From NCBI GenBank assembly GCA_964583105.1, contig CAZOUV010000003.1, forward strand, positions 14,946 through 78,945: a stretch of DNA of 64,000 nucleotides, written 5' to 3'. The position numbers were made by a program, and so were the translations under genes. Positions within the stretch are counted from its first letter, which is position 1, and each line of letters begins with the position of its first letter. The DNA comes from an uncultured Gammaproteobacteria bacterium. GTDB lineage: Bacteria; Patescibacteriota; Microgenomatia; UBA8517. Below the pieces are notes generated by a model. The model was not told the DNA's origin, did not search any database, and worked only from the letters and a program-made list of their open reading frames with translations. Below are positions 90 to 44,238 of the stretch, piece after piece.

Positions 90-641
90 TCATTGTTTTA
101 CCCACCAATATGTTGGCGGCTCAAACATACCCCGGTCCCTAATGCCGTATGGTCTTGGATCAATAATATTGGGAGTAATTTTATGGGCTTTGGTATAAGC
201 ATCCACCGCATCGGGGACTTGAACTCTGAAAGTTGAATAGTAATCATCTCCGGAGACAATTCCCCCAGTTTTTACTTTTTTGCTCCAGATAATGAGGTCC
301 TGGATAACATAATCAAACGAATGGTTCGCGTCGATGAATACAAAATCCAGGCTGTTATCGGGAATATCGTTGGCCGCATCCAAACTCATTTTATTTATAA
401 TAACAGCGTTATATTTGGAGAGTTTCTGAGAGGCAATAGCTTTAAAATTTTTATTCCTTTCCCAACTCCCCGAAAGACGGTTCCCGTGGTAGGGTCTCCA
501 GATGTCAATGCAGTAAAGTTTAAGGTTAGGAATTGCCTTAAACATACTTTCGGAAAACTCTCCCTGGGCAACGCCGATTTCTGCCCCAATGGTAAATTTA
601 AGTTCGGCAAAATATTCTAAAAGTTCATATTTAGATTTCAT
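90..641 (-). CDS. class I SAM-dependent methyltransferase
   Basis: 183 aa with a Gly-rich SAM-binding region (IGAEIGVAQGEFS) and the acidic motif DFVFIDANH, typical of Methyltransf_24-type O-methyltransferases in glycan clusters. Confidence 0.55.
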   Translation of the reverse strand: MKSKYELLEYFAELKFTIGAEIGVAQGEFSESMFKAIPNLKLYCIDIWRPYHGNRLSGSWERNKNFKAIASQKLSKYNAVIINKMSLDAANDIPDNSLDFVFIDANHSFDYVIQDLIIWSKKVKTGGIVSGDDYYSTFRVQVPDAVDAYTKAHKITPNIIDPRPYGIRDRGMFEPPTYWWVKQ

Positions 642-3322: not shown

Positions 3323-3943
3323 TTAATGGAATATGTTATGGAAGTAGTCGTAGGAAAGAGTTTGGCGATTTTTCCAACTAATAGGAAAGTTTGAATCCCC
3401 TTTGGTGTAACGGAAAGAACCCGACATAGTATCTTCTTTCATTATGTACCAACCCCCGTATTTATCTACAAATCCGTAAAAAGAAACCTCTCCATAATTA
3501 TCAATTTCGCTTATTTTATAACTGTCAGTTGGTTTTAGCGATGAATTTTGGTTTGATGGTCCACTATCAAGTAGCGTTGCACCTTGATTAACAGATCTTC
3601 CTAGGAGCAAACTTTCAACCTTTTTGGTAAACAAGGAAAAAAGGAAAAAAGAAAATCCGGCCGCTCCGACAAGTTTCAGAAATGCTCTTTTGTCTATATC
3701 CACAATATCAACAGCTTTTCTCTCTGCACCATTATCCTGTTCAACGGCAACGACAAATTTCTCGGGGTTTGGGTTTTCACTTTTACGCCCGATGAATTTA
3801 AAAGCAAAATAAATAAGTGGGGGATAAAGCAAACTTGCAATTGCAAGTTGTGTGTAGTTTGATGCTGTTATAAAGGATATAACAATCATGGTTGCAACTA
3901 AAGCTACACAGATATAGGAGATAATTTTATTTGTTATTGTCAT
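3323..3943 (-). CDS. hypothetical membrane protein
   Basis: 206 aa with two or three hydrophobic helices near the N-terminus; its stop overlaps the downstream gene start (ATGA-type coupling). Confidence 0.35.
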   Translation of the reverse strand: MTITNKIISYICVALVATMIVISFITASNYTQLAIASLLYPPLIYFAFKFIGRKSENPNPEKFVVAVEQDNGAERKAVDIVDIDKRAFLKLVGAAGFSFFLFSLFTKKVESLLLGRSVNQGATLLDSGPSNQNSSLKPTDSYKISEIDNYGEVSFYGFVDKYGGWYIMKEDTMSGSFRYTKGDSNFPISWKNRQTLSYDYFHNIFH

Positions 3944-5172
3944 ATGTTTTCGTTTTCTACAACTTCCACCAGATCTGAAAAAATATACCCTAGACCATCC
4001 TCAAGTTTTATTTGATACCAGCTGTTGGTAAGAGAAACATATTCAAATATCTCTCCGTCTTTGGCACTAGCAACTATTTTGGAGTCGAAAGAGGGGTTCT
4101 CACGAACATTAACGGATGAAAGCTCTTTATCATTAATTTTGACCGTTACTAATTTTGTATCTTTTTCTGTTTCAGTTCTTATCCCCGCAACAGATTCTTT
4201 AGGTATTGCTAGAGAAGTGTCTATATTTTGAGTTTCGATTTCGGGTGTTACCGGGGTTTGTCTATTTTTAAATGCAGTTTGAGCTATTCTTAGATACTTT
4301 GATACTATATCTGTATTGTTTGATCCTACAGTACTGCGTACATTGTTAAAACCGAACGAAAAAAGCAAAATATAGATAGATGTAGCCAGAGAAAACTTAA
4401 AAAAAGAATATCCAAACGACCCGTTTGACTTATTTTTTCTGTTTGAATAAGGATTATCCTTTTTATTTGGAGGCTGTCTCCTCACAAGATGAGCGTATTC
4501 TTTATCTAAAAATATACACTCGCAGAGTTTGAGATCTTTTTCATCCAAATCGTAATTTTCAACAAATTTTTGATAATTTTCGATACTTTTTATTTTGGAG
4601 TGTTGACTGTTGTTAAAAATTGTCAAAACCAAATTGCTATTTAGCCACGGAAGCTTGTTTTTTCCTGTATATACATCATAAGAAGAATATTTACTACTTT
4701 CTAAAGCCTCACGGTGTAAATAGTTGCTTAAATAAAGAAGAGAAGATTCATTTTCGATAAGGGCGGACTTATAGGGCCCCGCAAATAGGGGGCCTTGATG
4801 GTTGTATTTTTTATTGTAATACATAGAGTATCTTGTAGAAAGAGATCTCATAAATTTTTCCAAAAAACCACCAGCCAATTGACACAAAACAAGATGAAAA
4901 TGATTGGGGAAAAGTGTATATACTATAAGATCAATTTTATTATGGTAATTCTGGGGTTGATATGATATACCCCGGTATTTTTTACCACGGATCTCAAACT
5001 CTTTTTGAAAGAAATTCGGATCAGTAATGGGACTAAGATATTCCTTTAAAAAACCCAGGAAAATTTCGTAGTCTTGCTTGTCGTTAAAGATATTATTTCC
5101 GGAAATACTCTTGTTTGATATATGAAAGAATCCATTTTCTTTATCAATACGTTTGATATACTTGGCAGGCAT
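3940..5172 (-). CDS. HUH (IS200/Y1-transposase-like) domain protein with TM segment and C-terminal SH3b domain
   Basis: The N-terminal approximately 160 aa has an HUH-like motif (NHFHLVL) and a downstream Tyr-containing helix (GPYKSALIENESSLLYLSNYLH) reminiscent of IS200/RAYT transposases. A central hydrophobic helix (FSLATSIYILLFSFGF) follows. The C-terminus (SVNVRENPSFDSKIVASAKDGEIFEYVSLTNSWYQIKLEDGLGYIFSDLVEVV) is SH3b-like. Confidence 0.4.
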   Translation of the reverse strand: MPAKYIKRIDKENGFFHISNKSISGNNIFNDKQDYEIFLGFLKEYLSPITDPNFFQKEFEIRGKKYRGISYQPQNYHNKIDLIVYTLFPNHFHLVLCQLAGGFLEKFMRSLSTRYSMYYNKKYNHQGPLFAGPYKSALIENESSLLYLSNYLHREALESSKYSSYDVYTGKNKLPWLNSNLVLTIFNNSQHSKIKSIENYQKFVENYDLDEKDLKLCECIFLDKEYAHLVRRQPPNKKDNPYSNRKNKSNGSFGYSFFKFSLATSIYILLFSFGFNNVRSTVGSNNTDIVSKYLRIAQTAFKNRQTPVTPEIETQNIDTSLAIPKESVAGIRTETEKDTKLVTVKINDKELSSVNVRENPSFDSKIVASAKDGEIFEYVSLTNSWYQIKLEDGLGYIFSDLVEVVENENI

Positions 5173-35880: not shown

Positions 35881-36201
35881 ATGCCCATATTTCCCGAAAG
35901 AGAAAAAAATGTAATTGAAACACCCGAAGAGGCCTCGGCCTTAACTATTGAAAGAAAAGAAGTTGTAACTCCAATTCCAGTTTCTTTTTCCAAACAAGTA
36001 AAAACCGATTCCGGAAAGCCCCTCATGGAAATTCCGGGTCAAGGGGGGAAGATTAAAATAACAATACCCAAGTCTCAGGTTGAATTAGAAACTCTTTCAA
36101 AAGGATCTGTATCAGATTCCATTACCTGGTTTGCTGCGTTTTGGATTAGAATGATTAAGAAAGCTCTGCATTTCGGATGGGAGCTTTTGGGTGGTCACTA
36201 G
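35881..36201 (+). CDS. hypothetical small protein
   Basis: 106 aa; it overlaps the start of the downstream ATPase by 11 nt, suggesting translational coupling. Confidence 0.3.
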   Translation: MPIFPEREKNVIETPEEASALTIERKEVVTPIPVSFSKQVKTDSGKPLMEIPGQGGKIKITIPKSQVELETLSKGSVSDSITWFAAFWIRMIKKALHFGWELLGGH

Positions 36202-38539
36202 TATGGTTACAGAAACGTTATTTGATTACAATTTAATTATTAATATTCTCCTTTTTTCGGGAGTAGCAGCTACTTTATTTGTCGCATTGTGGCAAATTGC
36301 TTTAACCTTTTTTAAACACAGGGGTAGAGAAGAAAGAAGTGTTGACTCGGTTCTTCTTCAGATTGCACTGCCAAGAAATAACGAAACCAAGATTGATGCC
36401 ATGGAACAAGTATTTTCTTCTCTATATTCGATTAAAAAAGGTGGATGGAAACAAAGATTTTCGGTTCAACCTACCGTCTCTTTTGAAATTGTGGCCATGC
36501 AGGAAGACATAAGATTCTTTGTCTGGTGCCCCAAAAAACTTCAAGATCTTTTGGAAAAGCAGATTAACGGAGGTTTTCCGGAAGCGGAAATTAAGGAAGT
36601 TCCCGAAGTTGATATTTTTAAAGAAAAAGGTAAGGTTGCCTATAAATCCCTTCAGCTTTCCAAGGCAAATTTCTATCCCCTTAAAACCTTTAAAGATTTG
36701 GCAACTGATCCACTAAGTTCGGTTACATCTACCTTGGCTAAAATGGGACCCGATGAAGCCGCATCCGTTCAGATACTTGTATCTCCTGCTGAAAGTGCTT
36801 GGCAAAAATCGGGAAGTAAATTTATTTCTGATACCAAAAAACAGGAATCCGATCCTGAGAAAGCAAAATTTTCAACCTCAGCAAAAACTTTGGAAGCGGT
36901 TGAAAGTAAAATTGCAAAACCCGGATTTGAGACATCAATAAGAATTGTTGTTGTCTCCGAAACATCGGAAATTGCAAAATCACATCTTGATAATATTGCA
37001 TCCTCCTTTAGCCAATTTGCATCAGATACAAATCTTTTAAAGAAGAGAAAAATTGTCAATAAAGGTGCTTTCATGGAAGATTTTCTTTACAGGTATCAGC
37101 CGATGTTTAATATGCCCGGCAATAGAATGTCTGTTTTAAATTCTGAGGAACTTGCAACAATATATCATTTTCCCAATAAACAAGTCACAACCCCGCATAT
37201 TTTTTGGCTTAACGCAAAAACAGCCCCGGCCCCTTCTCAAATACCCATGGAGGGAATGTTTTTAGGCAATAGTATTTATAGGGGAATTAAAAGACCAGTC
37301 TTTATTTCCAACGAGGACAGGATGAGACACGTTTATATTATTGGTAAAACCGGAACCGGAAAATCCGAACTACAAAAAGAAATGATAATTCAGGATATTA
37401 AAGATGGTAACGGCCTTTGTTTTATAGATCCTCACGGAGATGCTCTTCAGGAGATATTAAAACAGGTGCCTCCTGAAAGAGCAGAGGATGTAATTTACTT
37501 TAATCCTGCAGATACCGAGCGTCCCATGGGACTTAACCTTCTAGAGGCAAAAACAGAAGATGAAAAACACTTCGCCGCAACATCAATTATCAATATGATG
37601 TATAAACTTTTCGATCCTTATAAAACAGGTATTGTGGGTCCCCGTTTTGAACACGGAGTCAGAAACGCAATGCTCACGGCAATGAGTGAAGAAGGTAACA
37701 CCTTTGTTGAAGTAATGCGCATAATGACCGACTCGCGCTATGTCCAAGAGCTTCTTCCCAAGGTTCAGGACCCCATTGTTAGAAGATACTGGACCGATCA
37801 GATTGCCCAAACCGCGGACTTTCATAAATCCGAAGTTTTAGATTATACGGTTTCCAAATTCGGAAGGTTTGTTACAAATAGACTCATAAGAAACATTATC
37901 GGTCAATCAAAATCGGCATTTGATTTCAGGCAAATTATGGATCAGGGTAAAATTCTCCTTATCAGTCTTGCCAAGGGAGAGCTGGGAGAGGAAAACTCAA
38001 ACTTTTTGGGACTTATTTTAATTCCCAGGATTTTGATGGCGGCCATGAGTAGGGCCGATATGCCTAAGGAGCAAAGACGAGACTTTTTCCTTTACGTAGA
38101 TGAGTTTCAGAATTTTGCCACCCCCGATTTTGCAACCATTCTTTCTGAGGCAAGAAAATACAGCTTGGGTCTTTGTGTAGCAAATCAGTTTATAGGTCAG
38201 GTGGAAGAGGAAGTTAAAAATGCGGTATTTGGTAATGTCGGAACAATAGTTGCATTCAGAGTGGGAGTGACGGATGCAAACTATTTACAGCATGAATTTA
38301 CTCCGACGTTTGCGGAAGATGATTTATTAAACATTGAAAGATATCATGCTTATATAAAAACCACGGTTCATAATGAACCAGTTCCTCCTTTTTCCATGGA
38401 TTTGACCAAAGACATGGCTCAACAAAAAGCTTCCGAAAATGAAAGAGTTGCAGAAATAATAAAAGAAATGAGTAGGATAAAGTACGGTAGGGATGGGAGA
38501 ATAGTTGAGGCGGAGATTGCAAGACGTTCTAACCTATGA
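36191..38539 (+). CDS. membrane-anchored FtsK/HerA-superfamily ATPase, type IV coupling protein-like (VirD4/TraD/TraG-like)
   Basis: N-terminal TM helix. Walker A is IIGKTGTGKS, followed by FIDPHGD. Walker B is FFLYVDEFQNF. The C-terminal ANQ region is present. The unique N-terminal domain of about 330 aa is unassigned. Confidence 0.55.
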   Translation: MVTSMVTETLFDYNLIINILLFSGVAATLFVALWQIALTFFKHRGREERSVDSVLLQIALPRNNETKIDAMEQVFSSLYSIKKGGWKQRFSVQPTVSFEIVAMQEDIRFFVWCPKKLQDLLEKQINGGFPEAEIKEVPEVDIFKEKGKVAYKSLQLSKANFYPLKTFKDLATDPLSSVTSTLAKMGPDEAASVQILVSPAESAWQKSGSKFISDTKKQESDPEKAKFSTSAKTLEAVESKIAKPGFETSIRIVVVSETSEIAKSHLDNIASSFSQFASDTNLLKKRKIVNKGAFMEDFLYRYQPMFNMPGNRMSVLNSEELATIYHFPNKQVTTPHIFWLNAKTAPAPSQIPMEGMFLGNSIYRGIKRPVFISNEDRMRHVYIIGKTGTGKSELQKEMIIQDIKDGNGLCFIDPHGDALQEILKQVPPERAEDVIYFNPADTERPMGLNLLEAKTEDEKHFAATSIINMMYKLFDPYKTGIVGPRFEHGVRNAMLTAMSEEGNTFVEVMRIMTDSRYVQELLPKVQDPIVRRYWTDQIAQTADFHKSEVLDYTVSKFGRFVTNRLIRNIIGQSKSAFDFRQIMDQGKILLISLAKGELGEENSNFLGLILIPRILMAAMSRADMPKEQRRDFFLYVDEFQNFATPDFATILSEARKYSLGLCVANQFIGQVEEEVKNAVFGNVGTIVAFRVGVTDANYLQHEFTPTFAEDDLLNIERYHAYIKTTVHNEPVPPFSMDLTKDMAQQKASENERVAEIIKEMSRIKYGRDGRIVEAEIARRSNL

Positions 38540-38552
38540 TAATCTTTCCGTT

Positions 38553-39398
38553 ATGAATATTGGAGTAATTGGCTGGGGTTTTGTGGGTCAGGCAACCGGA
38601 AAAGGACTTGCCACAAACAAAAAAAACAAAATCTTTGTTTATGATAAACAAAGAACAAGCCCATTAACCTTAGAGGAAGTTGTAGAAAAATCGGAATTTA
38701 TCTTTATTTGTGTGCCTACCCCGATGTATTCAGACTACTCCGGAATGAGTATGGCTATTGTAGAAGAAGTTGCGGGACAGATTGCAAAAGTAGCCAAGGG
38801 AACGGATAAAATAGCGATTGTTAAATCTACGGTTCTTCCGGGCCTTACTCAAAGTTTCATTAAAAAATACCCCAAAGTTAATTGGGCAATGAATCCGGAA
38901 TTTCTTACACAGAACAATGCAAACTATGATTTTATGCACCCCGCAAGAACGGTTATTGGAGCCTCATCCAAGAAAGTGGGGGAAAGGATAAAAGCTCTTT
39001 ATCAAACAATTTACCCCAATGATCAAACATATTTCATAATGGACGTAACCAGCGCAGAACTTACAAAGTATATGAGCAATAACATGCTTGCCTCACAGAT
39101 AATTGTTGCAAACGAGTTTTACTTCTTAGCTAAAAAAGTAGGAGCTGATTATGAAAAAGTAAAGGAAGCCGTTGGGGCTGATAAAAGAATAGGGAGATTT
39201 TTACAAGTGCCAGGTTGGGATGGAGATTTTGGTTTTGGACAAGCTTGTTTCCCAAAGGACATGATTGGTATTTTGGGTCACGCCAAAAAATTAAAAGTAG
39301 ATATGTCAGCCTTATCTGCAATATGGCAAAAGAATTTAAAAATAAGAAAAAACAGAGACTGGGAACACATGACTTCTGCCTTCAGAAAGAAAAATTAA
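38553..39398 (+). CDS. UDP-glucose/GDP-mannose dehydrogenase family protein, apparently lacking the C-terminal UDP-binding domain
   Basis: IGWGFVG Rossmann motif and the catalytic GFGQACFPKD Cys motif. It has only about 281 aa, against about 390-440 for full-length enzymes. The 280 bp downstream is noncoding. Confidence 0.45.
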   Translation: MNIGVIGWGFVGQATGKGLATNKKNKIFVYDKQRTSPLTLEEVVEKSEFIFICVPTPMYSDYSGMSMAIVEEVAGQIAKVAKGTDKIAIVKSTVLPGLTQSFIKKYPKVNWAMNPEFLTQNNANYDFMHPARTVIGASSKKVGERIKALYQTIYPNDQTYFIMDVTSAELTKYMSNNMLASQIIVANEFYFLAKKVGADYEKVKEAVGADKRIGRFLQVPGWDGDFGFGQACFPKDMIGILGHAKKLKVDMSALSAIWQKNLKIRKNRDWEHMTSAFRKKN

Positions 39399-39678
39399 TT
39401 TTTTGTTAAGGGGATGGAAAGAAGGTCATCAAATCTTATTAAACCCAACATCGTACCTCGTTCTGTGACTGAGTTACAATGGAGGGAATCCATGCTTTCT
39501 CCAGTTGTTGGGGACATCAGGTCTGGGGGAAAAATTCTTTCAGTTTGCATAAACAATGGCATGGTTTATTATAATGTTTGTATGAGTTATCGTTATTGTC
39601 GCCAATGTAGCGATCAGGATTATTGTTCGGAAAGATCAATTGGAACTTCAAATCTGCTATAATTTCATCGTAGTTTTC

Positions 39679-39749
39679 GGATCCGTCGTTTAACGGCAAG
39701 ACGGGTCTCTTATAAAGACCAAACGATAGTTCGACTCTATCCGGATCCA
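39679..39749 (+). tRNA. tRNA with UAU anticodon (tRNA-Ile, AUA-decoding type)
   Basis: Folded by hand. Acceptor is GGATCCG/CGGATCC. D-stem is GTTT/AGAC with loop AACGGCA. Anticodon stem is GGTCT/AGACC with loop CTTATAA. Variable loop is AAAC. T-arm is GATAG-TTCGACT-CTATC. Discriminator is A. U8, U33, A37 and G18G19 are present. Confidence 0.7.
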
Positions 39750-40002
39750 CTCAAAAAAGTTTTATTTTGATTACTTTTTAGTATTTAATTTTGATCCAGG
39801 AAGGTGTAGTTCCAATAAACCAAATACACCTCGAAAGGTCATCTCACCCTCAACCACTGGATTAATTGCTCGACCCGGAATTGGGAGAGTTACTACTCCA
39901 GCCACAAAACCCGCTATACCTATCGCAAGATTATCTCTTGTAAAGCCTAAAAAGTTCCGTGGTTTATTTTCAAGTAATTTTTCTCTTTCAGACACTTTAT
40001 AT

Positions 40003-40866
40003 TTATAATTCAATTAGGACCTGCCTCTTTCCTGATTCAGTTACTCCTGCAAGTTCAAGGTAACGTTCTGTTGTTGAAAGCCTTCTGTGTCCCGAAACTT
40101 GTGAAAGAAGAACAAGATCAACACCTCCTTTGATGTTTTCAATCATGAATGTTGTTCTTAAATCATTTACTGAATAATTTGGGATTTCCGCTCTTTGCAT
40201 GTACCTGTCAATTGCTGCCCTTATGTTTCTTACGGCAATGGGTTTTCCGGACTTACTTATAAATACATATTCAGATTGAACTTTTGGTCTATTTGTAAGA
40301 TATAAATCAAGCGCGTCTTTGGCGGGTTTGTTTAAAGGAATTGTCCTTTCTGCTTGTGTTGCATATGCTTCTATTTTTACGGTTCCGTCCTTGACGTCTT
40401 CGGTTTTAAGATTGGCTACTTCCGAAATTCTTATTCCGGTTTGCAATATGAGTTCAACCATGGCTGCAATTCTGGTATCGCCCCTTACAACATCTCTCAA
40501 GGCTCTGTATTCCAGTTGTGACAGAAATTTGGGAAGAGAGCTTTCAACTTTTGGGTGAGAAACCGTATTTGAGGTATCACTTGTAAGGAGTCCCTCAGAA
40601 ACAAGCCATCTGAAAAATGTTTTAACGGCATTTAGTTTTCTTGAAACCGACTTAGGAGTATATTTTTGGGTCAAAAGGGTATCTCTAAAACTTTCCAAAT
40701 CAGATGAAACAACCTGGTCTATTAAAGGTTTGTTTTTGTTTAGAAGAAATGCAACTAATTGATCAAGATCTGCTCTATAGGCAATAACCGTTGAGGGAGA
40801 TCTTCCTTTTACCTTTAAACTCTCGATAAATTTCGGAACAAGGTTTTTAACCGTTTCTTGTGTCAT
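40003..40866 (-). CDS. tyrosine site-specific recombinase (XerC/XerD/phage integrase family)
   Basis: N-terminal SAM-like core-binding domain. The C-terminus has GHRRLSTTERYLEL (conserved His and catalytic Tyr); the box II His residues are replaced (NDLRTTF). Confidence 0.75.
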   Translation of the reverse strand: MTQETVKNLVPKFIESLKVKGRSPSTVIAYRADLDQLVAFLLNKNKPLIDQVVSSDLESFRDTLLTQKYTPKSVSRKLNAVKTFFRWLVSEGLLTSDTSNTVSHPKVESSLPKFLSQLEYRALRDVVRGDTRIAAMVELILQTGIRISEVANLKTEDVKDGTVKIEAYATQAERTIPLNKPAKDALDLYLTNRPKVQSEYVFISKSGKPIAVRNIRAAIDRYMQRAEIPNYSVNDLRTTFMIENIKGGVDLVLLSQVSGHRRLSTTERYLELAGVTESGKRQVLIEL

Positions 40867-41600: not shown

Positions 41601-41608
41601 AACTTCTG

Positions 41609-41678
41609 TTGCGGAGCCAGGAGTTGAACCTGGCCTGCGAGATTATGAGCCTCGCGTGCAGCCGTACACTACCCCGCA
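41609..41678 (-). tRNA. tRNA with CAU anticodon (Met or Ile2/lysidine type)
   Basis: Minus-strand fold. Acceptor is TGCGGGG/CTCCGCA, anticodon stem CGAGG/TCTCG with loop CTCATAA, T-arm CCAGG-TTCAACT-CCTGG, discriminator A. The D-loop is short. Confidence 0.65.
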
Positions 41679-41750
41679 TATAACTAACATGGCTATTATA
41701 ACATACGGGTTTGTGAGTAGCTTTCCTTTAAGGTAAAATACTTAATTAAG

Positions 41751-41822
41751 CCAACGTAGCTCAGTGGTAGAGCGGAGCCCTCATAAAGCTTAGGCCGAAG
41801 GTTCAATCCCTTCCGTTGGCAC
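41751..41822 (+). tRNA. tRNA with CAU anticodon (elongator Met or Ile2 type)
   Basis: GCCAACG acceptor, TAGCTCAGTGGTAGAGC D-arm, anticodon loop CTCATAA, T-arm GAAGG-TTCAATC-CCTTC, G1-C72 pair. Confidence 0.8.
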
Positions 41823-41856: not shown

Positions 41857-41871
41857 CATTGTATTACAATG
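41857..41871 (+). promoter_or_regulatory. palindromic operator CATTGTA-T-TACAATG overlapping the start codon of the second brnT
   Basis: Perfect 7-bp inverted repeat; its final ATG is the ORF start. A TTGACT box lies at 41841-41846. Confidence 0.4.
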
Positions 41872-42153
41872 AAATCTGGTAAGAGTATGAAACTGGTTTG
41901 GGACGAGTGGAACAAGGAACATATTAAAAAACATAAAGTTTCCGTTTCTGAAGTCAAACAGGCCTGTAAGAACGAGATTGTTACTAAACAATCATATCTA
42001 AACAGGCAAATGATTTTAGGAGTAACGAAAAACAAGAGACTTTTGACAGTATTTCTCTCTTTTGAGAAACAGAAAGAAGGATATGTTGTGTCAGCAAGAG
42101 ATATGAGTTTAAAAGAAAGGAAAGTTTATTATGAAAAGACCAAAACCAATTAA
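41869..42153 (+). CDS. BrnT-family (DUF497) toxin, second copy
   Basis: LVWDEWNKEHIKKHKVSVSEV matches the BrnT FEWDxxK...KHGV pattern; 94 aa. Confidence 0.65.
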   Translation: MKSGKSMKLVWDEWNKEHIKKHKVSVSEVKQACKNEIVTKQSYLNRQMILGVTKNKRLLTVFLSFEKQKEGYVVSARDMSLKERKVYYEKTKTN

Positions 42154-42412
42154 ACCATTTAAATCTTTGAAAGAAGAAGCCAATTTTTGGGATACTCACG
42201 ATGTAAGTAAAGTATTTAAAAATCCAAAAATTTCTCTTTCCGAATTATTATCCCTTGAACCTAAAAAGGAAGTAATAATGACCTTAAGGGTTCAGAAAGT
42301 GGTTAAAGAAAAAATAGACAAAGTAGCAAAAATAAAAGGGATTAACCCCGCAACTCTTTCCAGAATGTGGCTTGTGGAAAGATTGACAAGGGAAGAAGGT
42401 TTGGTATACTAA
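42131..42412 (+). CDS. BrnA-family antitoxin, second copy
   Basis: EEANFWDTHD motif and a C-terminal RHH-like region. It overlaps the toxin gene by 23 nt. Confidence 0.65.
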   Translation: MKRPKPIKPFKSLKEEANFWDTHDVSKVFKNPKISLSELLSLEPKKEVIMTLRVQKVVKEKIDKVAKIKGINPATLSRMWLVERLTREEGLVY

Positions 42413-42683: not shown

Positions 42684-42755
42684 GGGAATGTAGCTCAAGG
42701 GCAGAGTATCCGTCTCCAAAACGGAAGATTGAGGGTTCAAGTCCCTCCATTCCCA
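42684..42755 (+). tRNA. tRNA-Trp (CCA)
   Basis: GGGAATG/CATTCCC acceptor, anticodon stem TCCGT/ACGGA with loop CTCCAAA, T-arm GAGGG-TTCAAGT-CCCTC. Confidence 0.85.
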
Positions 42756-42831
42756 CATATGGAAAGAATTAAATTTATAACACCGGCTATGTTAATTAGA
42801 AAGGAAACCTCGCAAGAGGGGTATCTCTGGC

Positions 42832-44238
42832 ATGACTATGTTTGGAATAAATATATTACTTAAACATATAAATAATAACTCTTTTATTGATAGGGAAGTT
42901 TCAGGTGCCCTAAAAAGAAGAGGGGAGAAAGAAATCTTTAATAGATTTTTGGTATCAGAACTTTCTTCGGGAGATAAAGTCATCGATTTTATGCTCAAAG
43001 AAGTTAAACAAAATACTAAAAACCTTTTAAAAGAAGGAATAATTATACCTGATCAGGTTTTACTTGATTTTACTATCTCAATTTTGAAGGCGGGTGGGAG
43101 TGAGAAACTGAATACCTACGACACAATTGTCAGGAAAATTATTGAACAAGAAAGCCCAAGATTTAAAAAACTTCACAACGATATAGATAAAGGCAGGTTT
43201 GACGGCAGATTACCCTTTGGGTATCCGGATGCAAGCAAAAGGGCGGCAGGGATGTTAACTGCCAAGATAAAAGATACTGCTCAAGATGTTAGAGAAGATT
43301 ATTTGGAGCAAAAATTTGTTGGAGATAAGATTAGAGAATTTTCCAAAGAAATGTTTTACGGAATTAATAAATTGGACCTATCGGGTAATGAACTGGTTAG
43401 ATATTTGAACATTCTCTATGGACTATCTCTTGTGCAAGTTGCACCTACGGAAAACCCCATACTTTTAAAAAGTAGAATATGTGAGGCCATAAGACAAAAA
43501 GAGCCAATTGATCTTGTGTATATAAAAAGCTTACGTTATTCCTATCCAGGGGGAAAAGGCATGAAATTAGTTAACCACCTTAATGAAGAAGAGACATTAA
43601 ATTTAGACGGGACAAAAAGGAAGTATTTCAGCGAGCATTTAATATTAGAAAGATTAGGTAAATTTGTTCAAATTTTTAATAATGCAGATGTAAAAGTTCA
43701 CTTAAATATAATAATTGCAGATAATGATCTTGATATTCTTTTCCCTATCGGTAGCGGTTTTGTGCCCGACAGCGATATTTATACAGCAAAAGAAGATATT
43801 AATTATTATCTGGAAAATTTTTGTCGTACCTGTGAGAATATGCACGCTGATGTTTATCTTTTAACAGATTTTATTAAACAAAAACATCTTGAGGGTAGTT
43901 ATACAAAGATGGTTAAATTTATTTATTCGGATGTTAAAAATCAAAGAAACATCATATCTGAAAGAGAAATCGAAGAAAGAGTAAATTTCAGATATGAATT
44001 TTTTGGACAGATCTATGGAAAAAAGTATTCAAGGGAATGTGCAAGAGAGGCAATGTATAACCAAATTGCAAATGTTATGGCCCTGTCAGAAGTTTTTAAT
44101 TCTTTTAAAAAACCTCCGGTTGTGGTGATTGATTACAGGGGACTGGAGAATAAAATGATTGGTGGACTAGAACCAAATTCCAGAAGCGTGTTCTTGACCA
44201 AACTTAAAGAGCCAACGATAATAGAGAAAGTGAAATGA
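42832..44238 (+). CDS. hypothetical 468-aa protein, no recognisable family
   Basis: Long ORF between tRNA-Trp and trpS. Its stop overlaps the trpS start (ATGA). No P-loop, HIGH or KMSKS motifs were seen. Confidence 0.4.
   Translation: MTMFGINILLKHINNNSFIDREVSGALKRRGEKEIFNRFLVSELSSGDKVIDFMLKEVKQNTKNLLKEGIIIPDQVLLDFTISILKAGGSEKLNTYDTIVRKIIEQESPRFKKLHNDIDKGRFDGRLPFGYPDASKRAAGMLTAKIKDTAQDVREDYLEQKFVGDKIREFSKEMFYGINKLDLSGNELVRYLNILYGLSLVQVAPTENPILLKSRICEAIRQKEPIDLVYIKSLRYSYPGGKGMKLVNHLNEEETLNLDGTKRKYFSEHLILERLGKFVQIFNNADVKVHLNIIIADNDLDILFPIGSGFVPDSDIYTAKEDINYYLENFCRTCENMHADVYLLTDFIKQKHLEGSYTKMVKFIYSDVKNQRNIISEREIEERVNFRYEFFGQIYGKKYSRECAREAMYNQIANVMALSEVFNSFKKPPVVVIDYRGLENKMIGGLEPNSRSVFLTKLKEPTIIEKVK

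Follow-up and report, generated by a model that had tools for sequence, protein, structure and literature searches.

The DNA analysed here is a single stretch of 64,000 nucleotides (hereafter the window), with a GC content of about 36% throughout and open reading frames (ORFs) that include FtsH, TrpRS, EF-P with EpmA, Pth, a class II RNR with NrdR, a split transketolase, a class I aldolase, GAPDH, PGK, two class A PBPs, an ATP-dependent DNA ligase and DivIC. It is chromosomal DNA of a small-genome cellular organism, and its gene content is typical of CPR. A phage origin of the window was rejected, as the gene content is cellular and a megablast comparison of the 36-44 kb segment with phage genomes gave no match. 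ARAGORN found four tRNA genes in the window: a tRNA-Ile with the anticodon tat, two tRNAs with the anticodon cat, and a tRNA-Trp(cca) at 42684-42756 on the plus strand. Two further features flank the last of these on the same strand. A BrnT-like toxin/CopG-type antitoxin pair (41869-42412) lies between the tRNA-Met pair and tRNA-Trp, and a 468-aa ORF (42832-44238) between tRNA-Trp and TrpRS overlaps the TrpRS start by 4 nt and has no Pfam or NCBIfam match, no PP-loop and no homologue at the related loci described below.

The tRNA-Ile(UAU) gene occupies positions 39679 to 39749 of the plus strand, spans 71 nt through the discriminator A73, and reads GGATCCGTCGTTTAACGGCAAGACGGGTCTCTTATAAAGACCAAACGATAGTTCGACTCTATCCGGATCCA. 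An earlier note had folded this segment by hand into a UAU-anticodon cloverleaf and named a tRNA scanner as the check; ARAGORN called tRNA-Ile with the anticodon tat at 39679-39750 (+). The Rfam tRNA model RF00005, whose gathering score is 29, aligned to 39679-39749 over its full length with 58.1 bits (E 6e-10) and zero non-canonical pairs flagged, the only credible RNA family match in 39300-40100. Every element of the hand-drawn fold is present in the Rfam alignment, including a perfect 7-bp acceptor stem (GGAUCCG/CGGAUCC), anticodon stem (GGUCU/AGACC) and T stem (GAUAG/CUAUC), the T loop UUCGACU, U8, G18G19, U33 and A37, which is the t6A site. The G53-C61 pair and T-loop motif of the tRNA model are likewise in place, and U34-A35-U36 occurs together with A37 and A73, the combination that characterises an AUA decoder. 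The D stem contains one U-G pair, the variable loop has 4 nt, and CCA is not encoded, the bases directly 3' of the gene being CTC.

The tRNA had also been described as hidden under two spurious ORFs, which holds for one of them. The only ORF of at least 20 aa that overlaps it runs from 39517 to 39750 on the minus strand (77 aa, GTG start, no Pfam match); the second, at 39414-39662 on the plus strand (82 aa), stops 17 nt 5' of the tRNA and has neither a Pfam match nor a homologue at the related loci. Upstream of the tRNA, we read from the sequence a putative extended -10 promoter, TGCTATAAT, at 39655..39663 (+), ending 16 nt before the tRNA 5' end, which a two-hexamer promoter scan leaves unreported because it has no -35 element. 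A similar TGnTAnAAT-like element lies 6-24 nt 5' of the orthologous tRNA at seven related loci (L004, L012, L013, L019, L022, L024 and L026), which suggests that it may serve as the extended -10 promoter of tRNA-Ile(UAU).

These orthologs were collected by scanning a GTDB set, one genome per species, with a pattern that joins the anticodon arm to a generic T loop (GTCTCTTATAAAGAC-N8-11-GTTCRANNC). The scan returned 31 loci, at all of which (31/31) ARAGORN called tRNA-Ile(tat). Twenty-three carry CPR lineage names, four are labelled 'bacterium' and four are labelled otherwise, three of the last group (L004, L024 and L031) having Microgenomates gene order; the closest syntenic loci come from Microgenomates, Amesbacteria, Shapirobacteria and 'Patescibacteria group' MAGs. 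The four contigs labelled otherwise bear the names Gammaproteobacteria, Pseudomonadales or Pacearchaeota. One of them (L030) has a CPR-like tRNA array and the other three show the Microgenomates-type synteny T4CP-tRNA-Ile(UAU)-Xer, and all four are probably mis-binned or mislabelled.

Two tRNA bodies could be distinguished among the orthologs. Type A, found at CPR loci, resembles tRNA-Ile(GAU), whereas the type B body of the window is a derived, Microgenomates-specific form. Type B combines the D arm GTCGTTyAACGG with the T loop TTCGACT and a variable loop of 4 nt, and recurs at nine loci (L004, L012, L013, L016, L019, L022, L024, L026 and L028). In an alignment of ten type B sequences, standard pairs fill 98.6% of 210 pair cells and 11 of the 21 stem pairs (35 cells) have changed on both sides, a degree of covariation matched by none of 500 shuffles; controls slid along the alignment were at most 60% paired. 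The anticodon arm is invariant among the pattern matches, but this is imposed by the search pattern and is not independent evidence of constraint. The tRNA-Ile(UAU) gene is under purifying selection. A pseudogene or chance cloverleaf devoid of function, a reading to which the 4-nt variable loop and the U-G pair in the D stem might lend some colour, is scarcely credible when set against a score of 58 bits with every universal nucleotide present, the compensatory evolution of the orthologs and the conservation of the promoter-like element; together, these in effect refute it. The scanner call, the Rfam score and the covariation of its orthologs agree that the UAU-anticodon tRNA is genuine.

Several observations concern the setting and the variants of such genes elsewhere. 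In 16 CPR loci (L002, L005-L008, L010, L011, L014, L015, L017, L018, L020, L021, L023, L025 and L027) a type A tRNA-Ile(UAU) lies directly 3' of ftsH, in most cases with tRNA-Val(GAC) next to it, giving the order S1-FtsH-tRNA-Ile(UAU)-tRNA-Val(GAC); at L011 and L029 the gene also adjoins tRNA-Ala(UGC). In the window, tRNA-Ile(UAU) is 6 kb upstream of ftsH. The genes tilS, hpt and ftsH are kept together in many bacteria, and the parallel between that arrangement and the adjacency of tRNA-Ile(UAU) to ftsH in CPR may be a coincidence. Metagenomes were also searched for a CAU sibling with the same arm and C34; the nine matches come either from contigs of high GC or from phage-like tRNA arrays, and the tRNA body of the window recurs in none of them. 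On a low-GC metagenome contig (L037, 8678-8771, minus strand), a tRNA-Ile(tat) of 94 nt with a long insert or extra arm was called in an array of 11 tRNAs that includes two CAU tRNAs and may be a phage tRNA array.

In L022 (about 282-466, minus strand) and L026 (about 3862-4037, plus strand), which are the closest relatives, the genes are nested: an outer, window-like tRNA-Ile(UAU) gene encloses an intact one. An insert of about 125 nt separates positions 35 and 36 of the outer gene; in it, a short linker and AAAATTT stand before the tRNA, and CC, AAATTTT and a small hairpin after it. In the outer gene, the acceptor stem still pairs, with compensatory differences between the two relatives (GGACCCG/CGGGTCC versus GGATCAT/ATGATCC), and the T arm is intact. 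The anticodon stem of the outer gene has a degenerate 3' strand, and a promoter-like TGnTATAAT lies upstream of the outer gene. When the outer halves were joined, ARAGORN called tRNA-Ile(tat) for L026 and not for L022. The orthologous locus has thus suffered an insertion in the anticodon loop in some lineages; the window has no comparable insertion.

On the opposite strand, 253 nt downstream of tRNA-Ile(UAU), lies a gene for a 287-aa tyrosine recombinase (40003..40866, minus strand; Pfam Phage_integrase, 2.9e-28, and Phage_int_SAM_1), and upstream lie a VirD4/TraD-like coupling protein of 782 aa and then a UDP-glucose dehydrogenase (UGDH)-like ORF of 297 aa (36191-39398, plus strand). The UGDH-like ORF corresponds to about profile positions 70-297 of 413 and shares about 61% identity with its relatives. 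The earlier note had read the recombinase as an integrase and its neighbour as a candidate att site, and under this reading tRNA-Ile(UAU) would be the past or present attachment site of an element carrying the adjacent recombinase, with which the tRNA itself may have arrived. Beyond the proximity of a tyrosine recombinase and a coupling protein, it can draw on the anticodon arm, an imperfect palindrome of the kind that integrases use as core sites, and on the interruption of the orthologs in L022 and L026 within the anticodon loop by a cassette that carries an intact copy, which implies that the locus can recombine. The recombinase, however, is Xer-like, its best full-length NCBIfam matches being XerC (1.5e-46), XerD and XerA, all below the equivalog cut-offs, and it belongs to an order of genes, traced by tblastn, that recurs in seven to eight related species (L001, L004, L012, L022, L024, L026, L031 and also L028): (RNR-CobAT)-T4CP-(UGDH)-tRNA-Ile(UAU)-Xer-DivIC-(tRNA-Met pair)-TrpRS. 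Xer shares 42-77% protein identity with its counterparts in these relatives, and the coupling protein 58-76%. Xer is a conserved neighbour that has no part in decoding, and because the coupling protein and the UGDH-like ORF are conserved in relatives, they are not island cargo. We found no second copy of the 3' 21 nt of the tRNA in the window at up to three mismatches, no partial copy of the gene there by blastn-short (it is single-copy), no relevant direct repeat in the roughly 10 kb to each side, no GC shift at the locus (0.38, within a window range of 0.32-0.41) and no match to the tRNA arm among IMG/VR viral contigs. With no duplicate of the tRNA in the window and no viral match, the att-site idea is left unsupported and we regard it as very improbable; the locus belongs to the ancestral chromosome and not to an integrated element, and it illustrates that a tRNA beside a tyrosine recombinase is not automatically an att site.

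We then considered which AUA-decoding strategy the organism uses, a question that had been raised with the tRNA itself. In 44 Pfam-supported ORFs of the window (14,816 codons), AUA occurs 25.9 times per 1000 codons, more often than AUG (18.6 per 1000), and accounts for 31.7% of Ile codons. At positions where the window has AUA, relatives carry I in 46%, L in 20%, V in 15% and M in 8% of cases, a profile that resembles AUU positions (I 55%) and not AUG positions (M 34%), in a comparison that is partly circular, as the relatives were translated with the same code.

For the supply side, we parsed the tRNA counts of 95 complete Patescibacteria genomes from supplementary Table 2 of 'Group I introns in tRNA genes of Patescibacteria' (PMC13011429). 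These counts are given per amino acid and not per anticodon; as ARAGORN names tRNAs by their anticodon, its 'Ile' column combines GAT and TAT and its 'Met' column holds every CAT. Two Ile and two CAT tRNAs (2, 2) are found in 32 of the 95 genomes, one Ile and three CAT (1, 3) in 42, two Ile and three CAT (2, 3) in 10, and other pairs in the remaining 11. The split follows class: all 12 Microgenomatia have at least two Ile and at most two CAT tRNAs and all seven Dojkabacteria are at (2, 2), whereas 27 of 36 Saccharimonadia are at (1, 3) and JAEDAM01 are all at one Ile and three or more CAT; Paceibacteria are mixed. The tRNAscan-SE columns of the same table agree, showing two Ile and one Met where ARAGORN has two and two, and one Ile and one Met where ARAGORN has one and three, a pattern which indicates that tRNAscan-SE keeps separate counts for fMet and Ile2. 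No third CAU tRNA is concealed by an intron, since Ile2(CAT) is missing from the list of intron-containing tRNAs for Patescibacteria and both Met(CAT) genes with introns in Microgenomatia are of the initiator-like type (PMC13011429). In a (2, 2) genome that uses AUA heavily, AUA must therefore be read by the second 'Ile' tRNA, which, by elimination and from the 31 pattern-matched loci, we infer to be UAU. The authors of the table make no mention of UAU, AUA, TilS or lysidine (PMC13011429), and we found no literature that links CPR/Patescibacteria groups, Saccharibacteria and Parcubacteria included, with lysidine or TilS.

The two CAU tRNAs that had been noticed in the window are both genuine by ARAGORN and Rfam. 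The one at 41608..41678 on the minus strand (46.6 bits) is initiator-like, with the acceptor UGCGGGG/CUCCGCA, A72, A73 and U1 opposite A72; bacterial initiators follow the rules of an nGCGGGG acceptor, A72/A73 and a weak or absent 1:72 pair. Further initiator rules are three G-C pairs in the anticodon stem and A11-U24; the window tRNA has A29-U41, G30-C40 and G31-U39 in this stem and U-A at 11:24. Orthologs are present at L001 (5558-5628), L012 (7410-7480), L024 (5492-5562) and L026 (6026-6096), and the exons of the intron-containing Met(CAT) of the Microgenomatia genome GCA_001029755.1 are about 94% identical to the window gene. On this similarity, together with the gene content and the closest syntenic loci, we assign the window to Microgenomatia (Patescibacteria/CPR). 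Among the Microgenomates initiator-like tRNAs, U1 stands opposite A72 throughout save for C1 in L024, the three consecutive G-C pairs of the anticodon stem are missing, and the T loop is CGCGACU in L001 and L012 and UGCGAUU in L024, instead of UUCRAnU. A group I intron interrupts the initiator-like Met(CAT) at 33/34 in two complete genomes of Microgenomatia (PMC13011429).

The second CAU tRNA, at 41750..41822 on the plus strand (68.7 bits), is of the elongator type. Rfam flags a C31-A39 mismatch in it, which closes the anticodon stem; by eye, the L026 and L001 orthologs have A31-C39 at this place. We take its A4-U69 and A5-U68 pairs to resemble those of E. coli tRNA-Met and not those of tRNA-Ile2, and because identity determinants vary between species, we based its assignment on the class-level census. 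As Microgenomatia have at most two CAT tRNAs, the two in the window are most likely initiator and elongator tRNA-Met, encoded on the minus and the plus strand, respectively. If both are tRNA-Met, there is no tRNA-Ile2(CAU) for TilS to act upon and the UAU tRNA is likely the sole AUA decoder, which is where the evidence on the decoding strategy points.

We also searched for TilS itself. No ORF of at least 150 aa in the window matched PF01171, tblastn with E. coli TilS gave no match in the 64-kb window or the 31 related 8-kb loci, and the SGGxDS PP-loop motif is absent from every reading frame of the same DNA, a span too small to decide the matter. The ORFs 5' of ftsH at CPR loci encode ribosomal protein S1, an MBL-fold protein and L19, not tilS-hpt. 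The tRNA census suggests that tilS is absent from this organism.

The competing reading is that TilS and a tRNA-Ile2(CAU) are also encoded and that the UAU tRNA only supplements AUA decoding, as was proposed for Lactobacillus casei and L. plantarum, where a UAU tRNA stands beside the TilS system (PMC3575796). Bacteria with both systems are listed in that study, the ten Patescibacteria genomes with two Ile and three CAT tRNAs indicate that both can coexist within the phylum, and the visible part of the present genome is 64 kb. The 12 complete Microgenomatia nevertheless all lack a third CAT tRNA, the list of intron-containing tRNAs for the phylum has no Ile2(CAT), and neither tblastn nor the PP-loop motif revealed TilS in the window or the 31 related loci; we therefore hold a redundant decoder to be unlikely. 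We conclude, with good though not complete confidence, that the gene encodes a functional tRNA-Ile(UAU) that is the dedicated and most likely the only AUA decoder here, the lineage apparently having replaced TilS and tRNA-Ile2(CAU).

The enzyme that would charge such a tRNA is IleRS. The window has no IleRS gene, and at one CPR relative (L020) we found an N-terminal IleRS fragment that shares 31% identity with the E. coli enzyme and 53% with a full-length protein of 1053 aa, the C-terminus of which contains Anticodon_1 and DUF5915 and no Zn-finger; the same architecture occurs on a 663-kb contig. DUF5915 is a mark of archaeal/eukaryote-like IleRS. None of the best 120 homologues of the L020 fragment is full-length, even on contigs of 0.5-0.8 Mb, and on another contig (L034, 10001-13154) IleRS is called as three pieces of 650, 136 and 240 aa. 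Because a 1053-aa member exists in one 90% identity cluster, the pieces are probably artefacts of long-read frameshifts.

Taken together, these data would be consistent with the following pathway. An extended -10 promoter of its own probably drives the tRNA-Ile(UAU) gene, whose transcript is probably matured by RNase P, RNase Z and a CCA-adding enzyme, the last being invoked because CCA is not encoded. Isoleucine would be attached to the tRNA by IleRS, and AUA would be read by pairing with the anticodon U34-A35-U36. The usual system of TilS and tRNA-Ile2, in which CAU is converted to lysidine-containing form, appears to have been replaced in the lineage by tRNA-Ile(UAU), which would make the two CAU tRNAs 2 kb away an initiator and an elongator tRNA-Met. 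How the misreading of AUG is avoided had been asked in the earlier note; by analogy with Mycoplasma mobile and a B. subtilis suppressor, weak recognition of G by U34, a co-adapted ribosome and competition from tRNA-Met could together account for it.

The closest known parallel is the tRNA-Ile2(UAU) of M. mobile (Taniguchi et al. 2013, PMC3575796), in which U34 is unmodified, IleRS recognises UAU via Arg865 and the organism's own ribosome rejects AUG. In both cases, an encoded UAU anticodon reads AUA in a low-GC, reduced genome that apparently has no lysidine-dependent tRNA, and A37 and A73 are present. M. mobile belongs to another phylum, however, and its IleRS is of the bacterial type, with Arg865 lying in the Zn-binding domain; the CPR relative L020, by contrast, has a DUF5915-type IleRS without the Zn-finger. 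Moreover, it is for M. mobile that an unmodified U34 and ribosomal discrimination were demonstrated. Bifidobacterium and Neorickettsia, which lack tilS and have a eukaryote-type IleRS (PMC3575796), share with the present case a UAU tRNA and an archaeal/eukaryote-like IleRS, the latter seen here in the CPR relative; they are unrelated lineages, and a few species there contrast with whole classes of a phylum here. U34 is likewise unmodified in tRNA-Ile1(UAU), the product of G34U in a B. subtilis tilS-deletion suppressor, and the binding of this tRNA to AUA is far stronger than to AUG (Kohrer et al. 2014, PMC3919564), so that a UAU tRNA was enough for AUA decoding there too. The type A CPR genes have the tRNA-Ile(GAU)-like body expected from a G34U or C34U origin; the suppressor is a laboratory case, whereas the window gene is natural, ancient and conserved. 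Canonical tRNA-Ile2(CAU) with TilS does the same job, reading AUA without AUG, but the anticodon of the window gene is encoded as TAT and not CAT, leaving no C34 to be lysidinylated. Saccharimonadia and JAEDAM01, with one Ile and three CAT tRNAs, show the pattern expected of the TilS system.

The window gene is most likely a case of TilS-independent decoding by tRNA-Ile(UAU), a known kind of system that is ordinary for its lineage. TilS and lysidine have been described as essential and as present in about 98% of bacteria (PMC6063277, PMC11947777), and UAU-type decoding has been treated as a rarity of nine species (PMC3575796). The description of UAU as a minority strategy thus stands for bacteria at large (PMC3575796), but not within Patescibacteria, where it is common (31/31 loci; 32 of 95 genomes at two Ile and two CAT). 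In this very large radiation, most of it uncultured, UAU decoding is a routine solution whose spread is under-described; the notable part is the lineage-level, bimodal swap of tRNA-Ile2(CAU) for tRNA-Ile(UAU) across Patescibacteria classes that emerges from the tRNA censuses.

TilS serves as a marker gene for completeness estimates. In these lineages, care is needed both with such estimates and with the automatic annotation of CAU tRNAs as Met or Ile2.

We lean towards a broader view, held less firmly than the assignment of the window gene, that whole classes of Patescibacteria gave up TilS and lysidine and read AUA solely by tRNA-Ile(UAU), namely all sampled Microgenomatia and Dojkabacteria and most Paceibacteria, ABY1, WWE3 and UBA1384, and that sister classes, namely Saccharimonadia and JAEDAM01, keep the canonical TilS system. 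Discrimination without lysidine may involve the specific anticodon arm (G28UCU31/A39GAC42, C32 and A38) and a eukaryote-like IleRS. The clean phylogenetic split could be used to find the changes in ribosome, IleRS or tRNA modification that let U34 read A and not G. If the broader view is true, the phylum would constitute a bimodal natural experiment, two Ile and two CAU tRNAs against one Ile and three CAU tRNAs, in how AUA is told from AUG without lysidine.
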